Positions 9,848 to 41,003 of a DNA stretch of 62,187 nt are shown here, piece after piece (positions within the stretch are counted from its first letter, which is position 1; every line of letters starts with the position of its first letter). The stretch comes from Oscillospiraceae bacterium (GTDB taxonomy: Bacteria; Bacillota; Clostridia; Oscillospirales; CAG-272). A model generated the notes under the pieces. The model made no database searches. It worked only from the letters and a program-made list of their open reading frames with translations, and was not told the DNA's origin. The stretch is taken from contig SVTX01000006.1 of the NCBI GenBank assembly GCA_015063545.1, positions 1-62,187 of the forward strand, read 5' to 3'. Both the position numbers and the translations under genes were made by a program.

Positions 9848-11245
9848 ATGGCACAGGTAAAAATCACAGAAACAGTATTGCGTGACTCGCATCAGTCGCT
9901 CGTTGCTACGAGAATGACCACCGAGCAGATGCTTCCTATACTTGAACAGATGGACAAGGTAGGCTACCACTCGCTTGAGGCTTGGGGCGGCGCTACGTTT
10001 GACGCTTGTATGAGATTTCTCAACGAAGATCCTTGGGAAAGACTCCGCAAGATCCGCGAGCATGTAAAGGACACAAAGCTTCAGATGCTTTTCCGCGGAC
10101 AGAATATTCTCGGCTACCGTCACTATTCCGACGACGTTGTGGAGTATTTTGTTCAGAAATCTATCGCAAACGGTATTGATATTATCCGTATTTTCGACGC
10201 GCTCAACGACCCCAGAAACCTCAAGACCGCAATAAATGCAACAAAGCGCGAGGGCGGTCACGTTCAGGCGGCGTTCAGCTATACGACAGGTCCCGTTTAC
10301 ACAATGGAATACTATTCCGAGTACGCAAAGAGACTTGAGGATATGGGAGCCGATTCTATCTGTATCAAGGATATGGCGGGACTTCTCAAGCCTTACGACG
10401 CTTATGAGCTTGTAAAGACCTTGAAGGAAAGCACAAGCCTTCCCATTCAGCTTCATACACACTATACCGCAGGTCTTGCTTCTATGACGCTTCTTAAGGC
10501 TATCGAGGCAGGTGTTGACATCGTTGACACGGCTATCTCGCCTATGGCTATGGGTACTTCCCAGCCTCCCACAGAGACACTTGTTGCGACTTTGCAGGGA
10601 ACAGAGTACGACACGGGCATCAGTCTCGAATCTCTTGACAAGGTTACAAAGCACTTTACACCCTTGCGTGAAAAGTATCTCGCTGAGGGACTTCTCAATC
10701 CCAAGGCGCTCAAAGTTGACGTAAACGCGCTTATCTATCAGGTTCCCGGCGGAATGCTTTCCAACCTTATGTCCCAGCTTAAGCAGGCGGGTAAAGAAGA
10801 TAAGCTCACAGAGGTTCTTGAAGAAGTACCGAGAGTAAGAGCTGACGTAGGATACCCTCCGCTCGTAACTCCTTCATCGCAGATCGTAGGTACACAGGCG
10901 GTATTCAACGTGCTTAACGGCGAAAGATACAAGATGGTAACAAAGGAGTTCAAGGGTATAGTTAAGGGTGAGTACGGAAAGACTCCCGTTGAGATAGATC
11001 CGGAATTTGTAAAGAAGATAATCGGTGACGAGGAGAGAATAGCTCATCGTCCCGCGGATGACCTCAAGCCCGAGCTTGACGAGCTTCGCGCAAAGATTCC
11101 CGCAGGCTATCTTGAGCAGGACGAGGATGTATTGTCTTACGCGCTCTTTGAGCAGGTCGCGCTCAAATTCTTTGAGTACAGAAAAAATCAGAAGTACGGC
11201 GTAGATGCATCTGCCGATGCAGAGCTTGGCGTACACAGCGTATAA
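9848..11245 (+). CDS. oadA: Oxaloacetate decarboxylase alpha (carboxyltransferase) subunit, without biotin domain
   Basis: LRDSHQSLVATR, EAWGGATFD, IKDMAG, HTH, PGGM, VTPSSQIVG. Confidence 0.9.
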   Translation: MAQVKITETVLRDSHQSLVATRMTTEQMLPILEQMDKVGYHSLEAWGGATFDACMRFLNEDPWERLRKIREHVKDTKLQMLFRGQNILGYRHYSDDVVEYFVQKSIANGIDIIRIFDALNDPRNLKTAINATKREGGHVQAAFSYTTGPVYTMEYYSEYAKRLEDMGADSICIKDMAGLLKPYDAYELVKTLKESTSLPIQLHTHYTAGLASMTLLKAIEAGVDIVDTAISPMAMGTSQPPTETLVATLQGTEYDTGISLESLDKVTKHFTPLREKYLAEGLLNPKALKVDVNALIYQVPGGMLSNLMSQLKQAGKEDKLTEVLEEVPRVRADVGYPPLVTPSSQIVGTQAVFNVLNGERYKMVTKEFKGIVKGEYGKTPVEIDPEFVKKIIGDEERIAHRPADDLKPELDELRAKIPAGYLEQDEDVLSYALFEQVALKFFEYRKNQKYGVDASADAELGVHSV

Positions 11246-37543: not shown

Positions 37544-37570
37544 ATAATTTATGTGGATTGCACATATACT
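37544..37570 (+). promoter_or_regulatory. sigma-E-like sporulation promoter
   Basis: ATA-16-CATATACT upstream of a SpoIVFB-like gene. Confidence 0.5.
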
Positions 37571-37598
37571 GTGGTATAGATTTTTTGCGAGGGAAAAT

Positions 37599-38255
37599 AT
37601 GAAGATCAGTATAGGTGCAGACGGTTTTTTATTGCTTTTTGGGGTGTTGTTGGCCGAAAATCGCGCGGCGGGGATTATATGCATAATTTGTGCTACCATA
37701 CATGAGCTCGGGCATATTTTTGCGGCGGCGGTTATGAAAATTAGGCTAAGAGAATTGAAAATAGGCTTTGCAGGTGCGAGAATTTATCCTCAAAATGAAG
37801 TCTTGCCGTATAAAAAAGAGTTTTTTCTATGTGCCGCAGGGCCGTTTGTGAATCTAACATTTGCCTTTTTGGGTGTATTTGCGTTTAATGTATTCTTTTT
37901 GAACAATGGCGCAGTTTTTGAAGATAGATTGATTCAAGTGTTTGATGTTTTGCGCGGCAACAGCGGAGATTTTGAAATCATGCTACTGTTATTTGTGATA
38001 GTATCTTTCATGCAGGCATTAGTCAATCTTTTGCCGATAGAGGGGCTGGATGGCGGGAGAATGATGGTATCTGTGATCTCGCAATATTCCAACGCACAGA
38101 CGGCATATAGGGCAGAAAGAGCTATTACGTTCTGCACTGTAACTGTCATGTGGTTGCTTTCGATATATCTTTTGCTCAAAACCTCAAGTGGAATAGGCAT
38201 ACTTCTGTGCGCGGCATCCACATTTGTAAAAATGATAAAAACAGACGGCAATTAA
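37599..38255 (+). CDS. M50 site-2 membrane metalloprotease, SpoIVFB-like
   Basis: HELGH, AAGP.VN, NLLP...LDGG; hydrophobic. Confidence 0.82.
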   Translation: MKISIGADGFLLLFGVLLAENRAAGIICIICATIHELGHIFAAAVMKIRLRELKIGFAGARIYPQNEVLPYKKEFFLCAAGPFVNLTFAFLGVFAFNVFFLNNGAVFEDRLIQVFDVLRGNSGDFEIMLLLFVIVSFMQALVNLLPIEGLDGGRMMVSVISQYSNAQTAYRAERAITFCTVTVMWLLSIYLLLKTSSGIGILLCAASTFVKMIKTDGN

Positions 38256-38303
38256 CATATAAAAAACGGGGGCATTTTGCTCCCGTTTTTGCATTACCAA
38301 ATT

Positions 38304-38837
38304 TTAAAGTGTGATGTTGTGCGTTACTTTGTAAGATCCAAGCGCGCCTGTCTCGGAAGTACCGATAAGAATCTTTTCAACGCGCAATGACGTTGGTACT
38401 TTTTCACTCTTGATTTTATTATAGGCTCTGTCTGTTTTTGTTGTGTCTGAATCCATAAAGAGGGTAGTGTGGAATTTGTAATCCATGTCATATTCATGGA
38501 GCGGTACGTTGTATTTTTCGAGCAAAATACGGTTGAGATCATCGTGTATAAGGTTTACTGTGGGGCTTTCCTTCATACGTATCCATACTATAGTTTCTTC
38601 TTTTTCAATGCCTGCAACCTCAATATCAAACGGTTTGATTTGTTTGTAGTAATCAAGTATCGTATTTATGACGTCGGCATATATGCTATTATCAACGCAA
38701 AATGACATTTTGAGCGAAATATGAAAGGGAAGAGTGAAGTTGGAATTTGCAAATCCTATGTCGCTCTCAATTTGTTTGGCTGCTGATTTTATATTTCCAA
38801 GCTGACTGTCAACATCGATTCCTGTCCAGATGTACAT
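38304..38837 (-). CDS. 2H phosphoesterase (2'-5' RNA ligase/ThpR-like family)
   Basis: Two HxS/T motifs (FHISL, FHTTL) with typical spacing; 177 aa. Confidence 0.8.
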   Translation of the reverse strand: MYIWTGIDVDSQLGNIKSAAKQIESDIGFANSNFTLPFHISLKMSFCVDNSIYADVINTILDYYKQIKPFDIEVAGIEKEETIVWIRMKESPTVNLIHDDLNRILLEKYNVPLHEYDMDYKFHTTLFMDSDTTKTDRAYNKIKSEKVPTSLRVEKILIGTSETGALGSYKVTHNITL

Positions 38838-38874
38838 GTGGTTCTCCTTTGGGGATAATATCAGTGATACAAAT

Positions 38875-38903
38875 ATTATACCAGTCGCGGCGAGTTATGT
38901 CAA
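38875..38903 (-). promoter_or_regulatory. sigma-A promoter of the 2H phosphoesterase gene
   Basis: TTGACA-17-TATAAT on the minus strand, extended -10. Confidence 0.7.
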
Positions 38904-38927
38904 TAGAGTGATCACATCGGTTGTTCA

Positions 38928-39207
38928 CCCTTCATCCGCACCACTCAAAAACGCACCCATCAAAGCAATATATGCCAATGGGAGGGGCGGGACTTGAACT
39001 TTCACATAAAATTCTGCGAATTTTATGTGATGGGCTCTGTGTTACCCTTCGTCCGCACCACTCAAAAACGCACCCATCAAAGCAATATATGCCAATGGGA
39101 GGCGGGACTTGAACTTTCATATAAAATTCTGCGAATTTTATGTGATGGGCTCTGTGTTATCCTTCATCCGCACCACTCAAAAACGCACCCATTTGGGTGC
39201 GTTTGAG
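38928..39207. repeat. Tandem array of tRNA-derived units (117 bp, 115 bp and a partial third)
   Basis: Units start at 38928, 39045 and 39160. Each begins with an inverted copy of the tRNA-Leu(CAG) 3' end; the full units also carry GGGACTTGAAC and a 13-bp-stem hairpin. Confidence 0.9.
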
Positions 39208-39294
39208 TGGTGCGGATGAAGGGACTTGAACCCATATGAAATTGCTTTCACTGGAACCTGAATCCAGCGCGTCTGCCAATTCCGCCACATCCGC
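39208..39294 (-). tRNA. tRNA-Leu(CAG)
   Basis: GCGGATG..GGAATTGGCAGAC, anticodon arm CTGGA-TTCAGGT-TCCAG, long variable arm, GGGTTCAAGTCCC, encoded CCA. Confidence 0.95.
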
Positions 39295-39308
39295 ATATTA
39301 AATTTGTG

Positions 39309-39450
39309 CCAAAACTAAAGGGAGAGACTGTGTCATCGTTTTACGGGACTTGAACTTTTACACAAAACTGTGTTTTGTGTGACGGTTTATCAAGTTACCC
39401 ATTTGTTGTACCAAAACTAAAGGGAGAGACACAGTCTCTCCCTTTAGTTT
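39309..39450. repeat. tRNA-Leu(GAG) trailer module with inverted repeats
   Basis: ccaaaactaaagggagagac occurs at 39309 and 39411 and inverted at 39434-39453; acgggacttgaac at 39343; hairpin at 39358-39382. Confidence 0.85.
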
Positions 39451-39534
39451 TGGTGCGAGAAACGGGACTTGAACCCGTACGGTGTAACCACACGCCCCTC
39501 AAACGTGCGCGTCTGCCAGTTCCGCCACTCTCGC
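39451..39534 (-). tRNA. tRNA-Leu(GAG)
   Basis: GCGAGAG..GGAACTGGCAGAC, anticodon arm CACGT-TTGAGGG-GCGTG, GGGTTCAAGTCCC, encoded CCA. Confidence 0.95.
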
Positions 39535-39567
39535 ATGAAACACTGTGTTGCTTTGGACAACACGGAT

Positions 39568-39596
39568 ATTATACATCACAAAGTTTGTTTTGTCAA
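39568..39596 (-). promoter_or_regulatory. sigma-A promoter of the tRNA-Leu pair
   Basis: TTGACA-17-TATAAT on the minus strand. Confidence 0.8.
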
Positions 39597-39720
39597 TAGC
39601 TTTTTGAAAAAAACTTTATATTTTTTTGAAAGTCTTTTGCTACTCAATATGTATTGTACGATTCTGATTTTTTGTATTGATCAGTGGGTTAAAGCTGTTA
39701 GACAAAAATTTTTTATATTA

Positions 39721-39749
39721 TTGACATACCTTTTTAAATACGATATAAT
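39721..39749 (+). promoter_or_regulatory. sigma-A promoter of the MFS gene
   Basis: TTGACA-17-TATAAT. Confidence 0.75.
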
Positions 39750-39785
39750 GAGAGCATGCTTTAGTCACTTTTTGTAGAGGAAATT

Positions 39786-41003
39786 ATGAAATTCAAGGAA
39801 AAATTCGCGTGTCTTTCTGACCGCAAGGTGAGCAGCTTTATTTATTTGCAGGTGTTTTTTAACGCCATGATCACCGTACTGAATATATTTGTCAACACCT
39901 TTCTGCTCAAGGCATATGGAAATACGTCAAATGAGGTTATGATATATAATCTTATCATGGCGATAACGCAACCGATAGCAATGTGTACGTCATTTTGGAT
40001 ATCCAGACGTGTAGGCTGTCTGCTCACGCAAAGAATAGGATTTGGCTTTTATGCGGTCGCTCTTATCCTTATGTGTATTTTTGGTGAGGAAATAGCATTT
40101 TTATATCCCTTACTCGGTATTCTCATAAGCTTTGGAGCGGGCTATTATTACGCGGTCTACAGCGTGCAGATGCTTCATTATACTAACGACGGAAACAGAG
40201 ATGCAATCTCGGGTGTGCTGACGGTGCTCGGCACGGTAATATCATTGATATTGCCTATCGTTTCAGGATATATTACGACTGTATTCAATGAATTTATCGG
40301 ATACAAAATAGTTTTCGGTCTGGTTGCGCTTATCGCCTTTGCGGCGTTGTTTACTACAACAAAGCTTCCAAAGATAGATACATGCCAAAACAATATCCGT
40401 TTTTTAAACGTATTTAAAACAATATGTAACAATAAAAACGGCAGAAATATAATGCTCGTCAATCTTCTTGATAACTTCAGAAGCTTTACCATAGGTATGT
40501 ATATAACCGTGGTGGTCTACCGCATTGTAAGCAACGAATTGTTGGTAAGCACGATAGCGGGAGTAGGAAGCATTCTGACGATTATCGGAGCTGTGCTGTA
40601 CGGTGTCGTGGTTTCCAAGAAAAATCGGGCAAAGTCTATACTGATAGCCACAATCTTCACTCTCGCCGCGTGCTGTTCGATGTGGTTTAAACTCAATATA
40701 TGGACTCTCGTAGCCTTTTTCCTGATGTATAGTTTTTTCAATATCTTTATAGCTATGCCCGTGTTAAACACACATTTCCACATAATAGAGCAGGATATGG
40801 GAATGAAGGACGCAGGGGCGGAGGTACATACCGTAAGGGAATTTTTTGTGGGTTTGGGAAGAATACTCGGTATTTTGATGATCTTTATAGCTCCGCAGAA
40901 TGATTTTGGCACGGCACTTGTGTTTGCCGTACTCGTCGCGTCTGCGCTCATAAGCGCTATTCTAATAAAAAGAATCAATAGTACGAGTGGCAAAACCTTT
41001 TAG
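39786..41003 (+). CDS. MFS transporter
   Basis: About 12 hydrophobic segments in two halves; 405 aa. Confidence 0.8.
   Translation: MKFKEKFACLSDRKVSSFIYLQVFFNAMITVLNIFVNTFLLKAYGNTSNEVMIYNLIMAITQPIAMCTSFWISRRVGCLLTQRIGFGFYAVALILMCIFGEEIAFLYPLLGILISFGAGYYYAVYSVQMLHYTNDGNRDAISGVLTVLGTVISLILPIVSGYITTVFNEFIGYKIVFGLVALIAFAALFTTTKLPKIDTCQNNIRFLNVFKTICNNKNGRNIMLVNLLDNFRSFTIGMYITVVVYRIVSNELLVSTIAGVGSILTIIGAVLYGVVVSKKNRAKSILIATIFTLAACCSMWFKLNIWTLVAFFLMYSFFNIFIAMPVLNTHFHIIEQDMGMKDAGAEVHTVREFFVGLGRILGILMIFIAPQNDFGTALVFAVLVASALISAILIKRINSTSGKTF

Follow-up and report, generated by a model that had tools for sequence, protein, structure and literature searches.

The locus

The DNA analysed was a stretch of 62,187 nucleotides (contig SVTX01000006.1, assembly GCA_015063545.1, Oscillospiraceae bacterium), referred to here as the window, and all positions are those of this stretch unless another contig is named. 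Two tRNA-Leu genes lie on its minus strand, and the second, tRNA-Leu(CAG), is followed directly by a tandem array whose units consist of inverted and direct copies of the 3' end of that tRNA around a hairpin. The units belong to a genus-restricted family of non-coding cassettes with tRNA-matched arms, which is structurally constrained and varies by insertion/deletion and copy number. The genome that contains the window (G000) is a metagenome-assembled genome (MAG) with 92% completeness. Features were as follows, in the order in which they are transcribed.

39568..39596, minus: consensus sigma-70-type promoter upstream of tRNA-Leu(GAG) (12/12 hexamer matches, 17-nt spacer)
39451..39534, minus: tRNA-Leu(GAG) (ARAGORN; Rfam tRNA 44.7 bits)
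39410..39454, minus: palindromic terminator of tRNA-Leu(GAG), with a perfect 21-bp stem including the tRNA ACCA (palindrome census; terminator scan positive on both strands)
39337..39419, minus: single inter-tRNA cassette (82 bits with covariance model R1, 70.6 bits with R2), made up of a decayed inverted arm, a hairpin (39358-39382) and a direct T-loop copy (39345-39355)
39309..39334, minus: GAG terminator 3' half in a second copy, with which the inter-tRNA cassette closes (26-nt exact repeat, within the 105-nt difference from relative G011)
39208..39294, minus: tRNA-Leu(CAG) (ARAGORN; Rfam tRNA 52.9 bits)
39160..39223, minus: long hairpin, formed by the tRNA 3' strand (T-stem 3', acceptor 3', CCA), the terminator (39176-39207) and the first inverted arm (39160-39175)
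39045..39159, minus: proximal full unit, 115 bp (R2 69.4 bits), with hairpin (39117-39145), direct T-loop copy (39104-39114), spacer, terminator 3' half and inverted arm (39045-39060)
38928..39044, minus: distal full unit, 117 bp, end of the array (R2 73.6 bits), with hairpin (39002-39030), direct T-loop copy (38989-38999), spacer, terminator 3' half (38944-38959) and third inverted arm (38928-38943)
38875..38903, minus: consensus promoter of the next gene, outside the repeat (12/12 hexamer matches plus TG extension)
38304..38837, minus: downstream gene of the 2H phosphoesterase / 2'-5' RNA ligase superfamily, given as context (Pfam PF13563, E = 2e-10)

Tandem Repeats Finder placed the array at 38922-39192 (2.3 copies, period 115, 95% matches), directly 3' of tRNA-Leu(CAG), and the two full units, of 115 and 117 bp, were found to differ by 2 substitutions and one 2-bp indel. 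The minus strand holds three copies of TGGTGCGGAYGAAGG, antisense to the tRNA-Leu(CAG) 3' end and starting at 39175, 39060 and 38943, together with two 13-bp hairpins with a GCA loop and two direct copies of GTTCAAGTCCC, at 39114 and 38999. Read in tRNA sense, the gene terminates in ...CCCTTCATCCGCACCA and is followed by the terminator CGCACCC-AAAT-GGGTGCG-TTTTT and then, without gap, by TGGTGCGGATGAAGG, which is the reverse complement of the final 15-16 nt of the tRNA. The original prediction, made from the letters of this stretch, had described an array of inverted tRNA 3' copies with a hairpin and a direct T-arm copy, and this was confirmed by the repeat finder and by unit comparison. Its view that the tRNA end is repeated in inverted and not in direct orientation held for the CCA and acceptor copies in the window, but not for the T-loop, of which every unit has a direct copy, nor for relatives, in which full direct copies reach the CCA.

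For the tRNA with the first antisense arm, the predicted RNA fold had a minimum free energy of -73.7 kcal/mol (z = -9.6; 0/200 shuffles as stable) and formed a hairpin of ~30 bp that absorbs the acceptor and T stems of tRNA-Leu(CAG). The predicted pairing between antisense arm and tRNA far exceeds chance.

The array is not an assembly artefact. Both unit variants and the bridged unit junction were present in contigs of three DNA runs (e.g. 38929/38931-39075), which possibly include the source sample; no long read spans the array, and Logan contigs are shorter than its span. RNA run X19 covered the tRNA genes only, and other RNA runs contained 0.05-0.06 of words. No promoter was found inside the array by promoter scan. 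In an Rfam cmscan of 38000-40500 with E values allowed up to 10, the two tRNAs passed and no other family reached its gathering score; the long hairpin drew nothing except spurious miRNA-model matches far below that score.

Structure of the cassette

In tRNA sense the parts follow each other as terminator, inverted cognate arm, purine-rich loop, hairpin, AAAG linker and direct cognate arm. The terminator is intrinsic and palindromic and begins directly after CCA. The inverted arm is antisense to the CCA, the acceptor 3' strand and the T-stem 3' strand of the cognate tRNA, and the purine-rich loop behind it, which ends in ..GAGAAC.., occupies the place of an antisense T-loop. The conserved hairpin (8-14 bp) opens with ACACAT and closes with ATGT, and the direct arm is formed by the cognate T-loop and T-stem 3' strand, e.g. 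GTTCGAGTCTCC (Lys), GTTCAAATCT (Gln) and GTTCGATTCCCCTCAC (tmRNA, transfer-messenger RNA). The cassettes are non-coding and 85-151 bp long. Read as DNA, the chain sense - terminator - antisense - hairpin - sense forms a 'zigzag' of two alternating palindromes, which accounts for the 115-118-bp period.

In an alignment of 22 units, 99.4% of the cells of the hairpin helix were paired, 6/8 pairs were changed on both sides and 0/500 shuffles were equal, and pairing fell to ~42% when the partner was slid by one column. That alignment was fitted to a covariance model and is hence biased toward structure; three compensatory hairpin pairs remain in a plain MAFFT alignment across species. The outer helix (..AAC/GTT..) was paired at 78.5%, against the 99.4% of the inner one. 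The hairpin, which had been taken for foreign to the tRNA repeats around it, is instead the conserved core of a genus-wide family.

The direct copy is sharply bounded: in 21 units identity with the tRNA starts 1-3 nt before T54 and runs for 8-15 nt, so that the left edge lies at G52/G53, beside the conserved ATGT-AAAG, and one extra base is frequent in the T-loop copies. The inverted arm is far less constant, with runs of 5-16 nt overall and a perfect run of at least 10 nt at 5/30 tRNAs of this genome. Between the arms the T-stem 3' strand stands against its complement, and both arms are derived from the target. In two relatives (G018 and G012) the direct arm extends to the CCA and is then followed by its own terminator. 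A terminal inverted repeat with target-site duplication of the usual kind was not seen, nor was an autonomous relative among Y1 and IS110 elements.

Other roles for the parts were considered and set aside. The hairpin gave no convincing match to an antisense anticodon or variable arm, as judged by eye, and as promoter or terminator it was rejected, there being no T-run after it and no promoter found. A flipped terminator loop (TGT versus ACA) was discarded as a mark of fold-back copying because relative G051 has the identical loop in both copies.

Distribution within and beyond the genus

BLAST of the unit against its own genome returned the same grammar at 39337-39419 and, in two copies, on contig C64 after a second tRNA-Leu(GAG). 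A first covariance model (R1) was built from ten Leu units and matched behind tRNA-Arg(ACG), Ser(CGA), Lys, Met, Gln and tmRNA; a second (R2) was built from 22 units. With R2, 24 units were found in G000 with strict filters and 25 with lax ones, behind at least 12 tRNA genes plus tmRNA. All 24 matches were on the tRNA strand; an annotated tRNA or tmRNA precedes 22 of them, a tRNA-like 3' end at the edge of a contig precedes one, and the last is an orphan. Cognate arms were recorded for Arg(ACG), Ser(CGA), Lys, Met, Gln(UUG, CUG), Glu(UUC, CUC), Arg(CCG), Leu(CAG, GAG, CAA), Trp and tmRNA, and the Leu(CAA), Trp and Gln(CUG) variants had different hairpin sequences by eye.

From the five closest relatives 51 regions were fetched in addition to 6 earlier loci. 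A same-strand tRNA lay upstream of 42/59 match groups, with a gap of 28-36 nt in 39 of the 42, and 14 of the remaining 17 groups touch a contig end; the first model match begins 28-36 nt past the CCA. Across the six genomes cassettes stand behind 22 tRNA species plus tmRNA. The claim that units are built from the adjacent tRNA was borne out in this way, since the same grammar, with cognate arms, recurs at 22 or more other tRNA species and at tmRNA. Confinement of the array to one locus had been named beforehand as a finding that would speak against the idea; other loci were looked for and found, and the idea stands.

The general model matched 31/39 genomes of the genus, including 13/16 of good quality, and outside the genus it matched 0/150 genomes of the order (97 genera) and 0/150 of the class (108 genera). 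These large searches were run with stricter filters, under which the window's own genome loses just one match. Antisense copies of at least 10 nt within 110 nt downstream occurred at 0/58 tRNAs in four other genomes of the order, against 5/30 here. A scan with exact 20-mers returned four stretches among genome contigs, namely three known relatives and one chance match in a coding region, and among metagenome contigs two unrelated high-GC contigs only. Between species the unit is ~75-80% identical, and the DNA of the neighbouring major facilitator superfamily (MFS) transporter gene 76-79%. The signal recognition particle (SRP) RNA gene, a single example, had no cassette. A match to a described repeat family was not found in Rfam either, nor was a description of tRNA-flank repeats with inverted cognate arms in the full-text literature searched; subscription journals lie outside it and may hold an earlier one.

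Variation at orthologous loci

Orthologous tRNA-Lys loci held 1, 1.3, 2.3 and 3.2 units, so that copy number differs between species; the term 'amplifying' in the original prediction is apt for this change and was not upheld as an active process. Behind the identical tRNA-Leu(CAG) genes of G044, G049, G022 and G011 there are plain, unrelated terminators, and an inverted arm is missing. The locus in the window is orthologous to that of G011 (shared MFS gene and promoter), where the inter-tRNA unit is missing; the 105 additional nt in G000 comprise this unit and the second terminator 3' half, and the unit is present in G051 as well as G000.

At tRNA-Ser(GGA) a plain terminator was found in G000 and cassettes in 4 relatives. 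One of these, G010, has two cassettes and then a decayed T-loop-to-CCA copy joined to a terminator of the G000 type (distal copy against the G000 tRNA 3' part, 18/24; trailer, 60/71 identities). The alignment thus puts the intact 3' part of the tRNA on one side of the cassettes and its displaced counterpart on the other, as with integrated elements. In G048 a cassette stands on the host side of the right junction of a prophage and is therefore older than the prophage. Perfect 26-nt inverted copies that include the true T-loop lie right after the terminator 3' half in G051 and G006, which shows that fresh inverted copies do arise. G051 also carries an insert of 2 kb with a partial tRNA-Leu(CAG) after it.

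The surroundings vary too. The block of M50 peptidase, tRNA-Leu(GAG), tRNA-Leu(CAG) and MFS transporter (37551-41003; L043, L092, L094, L002) is inverted or broken differently in G000, G051, G052, G006 and G011, and in G052 a decayed pseudo-tRNA-Leu(CAG) with an array lies directly upstream of the MFS promoter.

Enzymes and palindromes

No enzyme was found for the cassette among those searched (Y1, IS110 and IntI). In G000 the Y1 transposase profile PF01797 gave 0 matches (control positive in 6/14 genomes), IS110 transposases gave 0, and the best match to the integron integrase profile TIGR02249 scored 34.8 bits against a cut-off of 265. The only reverse transcriptase (RT) of the genome belongs to a diversity-generating retroelement (DGR), with Avd and target gene, on contig C20, not that of the window. 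A Y1/RAYT transposase or an RT that co-occurs with the repeat, as had been proposed, did not materialise. G000 has two or three generic tyrosine recombinases, two of them in ordinary islands; of the three matches, all away from the units, one closes a ~41-kb island at tRNA-Ser(GCU) and one adjoins tRNA-Arg(CCU).

The downstream 2H phosphoesterase was rejected as a partner, tblastn having found the gene in no relative's fetched locus. Other arrays precede unrelated genes, and this gene with its own promoter occurs at the window locus only. The presence of an enzyme of RNA ends beside tRNA-derived repeats is suggestive.

Perfect palindromes of at least 16 bp numbered 50 in G000; ten directly adjoin the 3' end of a tRNA or tmRNA, and tRNA-Lys has the longest, of 30 bp. 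The hairpin nuclease SbcD (TIGR00619) exceeded the cut-off in 0/39 genomes of the genus, with 7 weak matches, and was present in 72/101 genomes of the order, including 4/4 sister genera. With SbcD lacking, long palindromes should be tolerable in the genus. Palindromes also break assemblies, as indicated by the many matches at contig ends and one fold-back contig, which may explain why only 32 tRNAs were assembled in the MAG. In that contig (L008; G006 contig C55) a perfect fold-back around a tRNA-Leu(GAG)-type terminator mirrors the flanking genes, probably an assembly artefact caused by the palindrome.

Comparison with known systems

Like tRNA-targeting integrative elements (prophages, islands, tycheposons; 10.1101/2020.12.28.424599), the cassette sits as an insert between an intact tRNA and a displaced 3' copy. 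In both, the insert supplies a new 3' end and terminator, and events stack at one tRNA or tmRNA. The cassette is unlike these elements in that it is ~100 bp long with no integrase and no genes, adds an inverted 3' copy and a conserved hairpin, and serves more than 20 tRNAs as one family. Direct repeats of the tRNA 3' part flanking the insert, as in duplication of an attachment (att) site, were found (G010 versus G000, and the T-loop copy in each unit); an integrase inside the insert was not.

Trailers of the E. coli tyrT type are tandem direct repeats with the tRNA 3' end. The arrays here are likewise tandem repeats directly behind a tRNA gene and contain its 3' end; they differ in having an inverted arm and a short direct arm around a hairpin, in occurring genome-wide, and in the inversion of the CCA/acceptor copies. 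Repetitive extragenic palindromes (REP), bacterial interspersed mosaic elements (BIME) with their RAYT transposases, and miniature inverted-repeat transposable elements (MITEs) are also short, structured, lineage-specific, multi-copy palindromes in 3' flanks and potential terminators. Unlike the REP/BIME type, the cassettes come with no Y1/RAYT gene, lie behind tRNA-like genes only and have arms rewritten per target; dispersal behind many kinds of gene was not observed, 22 of the 24 R2 units being behind tRNA or tmRNA and one behind a tRNA-like 3' end.

The attC site of integrons and the folded CTX phage site may resemble the cassette in forming an imperfect palindrome that has a ..AAC/GTT.. 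outer box, is unpaired in the middle and varies at the tip, as well as in the tandem arrangement of cassettes and in a G|TT junction. They are unlike it in that the cassette comes with no IntI and no cassette open reading frames, and in that its arms derive from the tRNA. A motif located ~10 bp behind about half of the tRNA genes of Methanopyrus kandleri (PMC5217627) is a lineage-specific palindrome at fixed distance and of unknown function, as is the case here; it is 18 nt long, lacks arms derived from the tRNA and does not form tandem arrays. Template-switch (quasipalindrome) mutations (PMC8794818, PMC7202029) would explain a terminator palindrome that reaches the tRNA 3' end and a persistently perfect hairpin, but would leave unexplained the hairpin shared at different tRNAs and the direct T-loop copy.

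Two further systems were rejected. For a type III toxin-antitoxin RNA array no endoribonuclease toxin was found next to the array, the downstream 2H phosphoesterase having its own promoter and being present at this locus only; for a retron or RT-linked repeat there was no adjacent RT, the sole RT being the DGR-type enzyme on C20.

Interpretation

The tentatively preferred reading, given a probability of roughly 0.4, sees in the cassette a piece of non-coding DNA that provides tRNA genes with a terminator by insertion or expansion at their T-loop. It draws on the architecture with cognate arms, the sharp edges of the direct copy, the covariation of the hairpin, the restriction to the genus, the differences in presence and copy number at orthologous loci, the fresh inverted copies, the lack of SbcD and the predicted fold of read-through RNA. 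The cassette would enter or expand at the T-loop and bring a replacement 3' end and terminator to the tRNA, and the old 3' part would be pushed downstream and decay there. Copy number would shift through recombination between direct repeats, and intrastrand template switching across the palindrome of the terminator would preserve or recreate the inverted arm, such palindromes being presumably tolerated in a genus without SbcD. Template switching is reported to act as both maker and keeper of hairpins (PMC8794818). As for the host, the cassette may act as a strong two-way terminator, and a read-through transcript would fold the tRNA 3' end into a duplex of ~30 bp.

Several points weigh against this. 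The hairpin and purine loop are common to cassettes at different tRNAs and the arms are cognate, so neither simple insertion nor simple template switching accounts for both. The loop of the inverted arm is not complementary to the direct T-loop, and the direct arm is therefore no fold-back copy of the inverted arm. The family is kept at orthologous tRNAs across many species of the genus, so that host-level selection fits as well as a selfish element. The differences at Ser(GGA) and Leu(GAG) may be read as gain or as loss, the failure to find an enzyme counts here also, and SbcD loss is not a sufficient cause, two SbcD-less genomes of other families being without inverted arms (0/29 tRNAs).

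A selected RNA function in the host was ranked second, because the architecture is kept at orthologous tRNAs genus-wide and the asymmetric GAGAAC loop and AAAG linker are conserved; it is nevertheless doubtful. On this view pre-tRNAs would carry the cassette as a structured 3' external spacer, which might serve in processing or quality control, or else as a protein-binding or sponge RNA; in the former case the antisense arm would capture the 3' end of a read-through precursor and the direct T-loop copy would compete for it. Maintenance across at least 22 tRNA species plus tmRNA and in 31/39 genomes, covariation of the hairpin, and the fixed strand and distance from the CCA all agree with this, as does the predicted ability of the antisense arm to pair with the tRNA or with the direct arm. 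The SRP RNA gene without a cassette suggests specificity for tRNA-like 3' ends, on a single example, and the palindrome behind about half of the Methanopyrus kandleri tRNA genes was proposed as a 3' maturation signal (PMC5217627). Against such a function, the antisense arm is long and perfect (at least 10 nt) at only 5/30 tRNAs and decayed elsewhere, internal units usually lie past a full terminator, where little transcription is expected, cassettes are missing from several tRNAs and from whole species, and copy number ranges from 1 to 3.2. The lack of a promoter within the array points the same way, and X19 covered the tRNAs only.

It is rather less probable that the cassette is mobile and protein-less, targets the T-loop of any tRNA or tmRNA gene, folds as a rod in which the inverted arm pairs with the direct copy, enters at G|TTC through a recombinase of the host or one yet to be found, and re-templates its arms per tRNA. 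If this were true, most tRNA 3' ends and terminators of a whole genus would have been rewritten.

The boldest reading, a miniature integrative cassette moved through a folded single strand by a site-specific recombinase, as at the attC site or the CTX phage attachment site, appears improbable. The arms would pair, the T-loop opposite the non-complementary purine loop would form a bubble, and strand exchange would take place at G|TTC. In favour of it, the left edge of the direct copy is sharp, at G52/G53 by ATGT-AAAG, and a predicted outer helix (..AAC/GTT.. with T-stem pairing) surrounds the inner hairpin with its variable tip; the cassettes are also flanked by two copies of the tRNA 3' part and stand in tandem at one site. 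The attC grammar is RYYYAAC ... GTTRRRY, and the cassette may resemble it in shape. The 3' half of the hairpin with its linker, TTATGTAAA, may likewise resemble the XerD arm of dif sites. However, the T-loop GTTC departs from GTTRRRY at position 4, no integron integrase exceeded the cut-off, no candidate recombinase was conserved with the cassettes, and neither a free or circular form nor the movement of a cassette from one tRNA to another was seen.

The 3' ends of tRNA and tmRNA genes are classic integration sites, and the units could be ordinary scars, i.e. fused left and right att remnants of tRNA-integrating islands or prophages that lost their interior. The genome does have a ~41-kb island with an integrase, bounded by 17-nt direct repeats of the tRNA-Ser(GCU) 3' end, as well as direct tRNA 3' repeats without inverted arms at Thr(GGU), Thr(CGU) and Met, and the 2-kb insert of G051 is followed by a partial tRNA-Leu(CAG). 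Tycheposons show scattered partial tRNAs in islands (10.1101/2020.12.28.424599). This origin is unlikely, as the same hairpin and loop at more than 20 tRNAs with fixed geometry and covariation are not expected of random decay, no full-length element with such ends was found, the one clear prophage has neither inverted arm nor hairpin at its ends, and the G048 cassette predates such a prophage.

Least likely of all, and nearest to the tRNA-templated element originally proposed, is an RNA-templated origin, in which a terminated pre-tRNA snaps back on its terminator, is extended by a polymerase or RT and is copied into DNA: the inverted arm does start exactly where self-primed extension of the terminator 3' strand would, and resembles a primer-binding site for the tRNA 3' end, but the sole RT of the genome is of DGR type on another contig, the hairpin is not tRNA-derived, and there is no poly-A or other mark of retro-insertion.

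The 3' ends of tRNA genes are the commonest landing sites of mobile DNA, and to our knowledge the known users of these ends are large integrase-carrying elements. Here a ~100-bp non-coding module with target-matched arms holds most tRNA flanks in a genus of uncultured gut bacteria. If mobile, it would show that tRNA genes can be targeted, and guide-like arms rewritten, in a new way; if a host device, it would be a new kind of tRNA trailer or terminator module.

Further observations at tRNA flanks

On contig C64 (~9875-10000, minus) a 5' pseudo-tRNA-Leu(GAG) fragment with a ~55-nt D-loop insertion lies directly upstream of the intact tRNA-Leu(GAG). In G021 (L048) a 5'-truncated second tRNA-Leu(CAG) carries a ~80-nt insertion with a GACAGTCC..GGACTGTC hairpin, and the same hairpin occurs in a ~210-nt repeat behind tRNA-Met on contig C27.

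The ~41-kb prophage-like island spans contig C20 10155-51177 (L063, L064) between its 17-nt direct repeats of the tRNA-Ser(GCU) 3' end; a 379-aa integrase is at the far end, and the DGR comprises a 181-aa target, a 124-aa Avd-like protein and a 345-aa RT. Another repeat family is found at tRNA flanks and contig ends, with a terminator and GTGAAATA-type repeats behind tRNA-Val(GAC) and tRNA-Tyr (C49 ~900-1105, C48 ~340-545); the GTGAAATA-type trailer also occurs at the right junction of the tRNA-Ser(GCU) island (C20 51060-51177) and at a Gln-type unit in G012 (L026).

At contig C29 87497-87900, tRNA-Thr(GGU) is followed by a plain ~158-bp direct repeat with its last 30 nt, which is tyrT-like and has no inverted arm. 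A candidate dif-like site with two CATAA/TTATG arms around a short spacer was picked up by a loose regular expression at contig C13 324-353.

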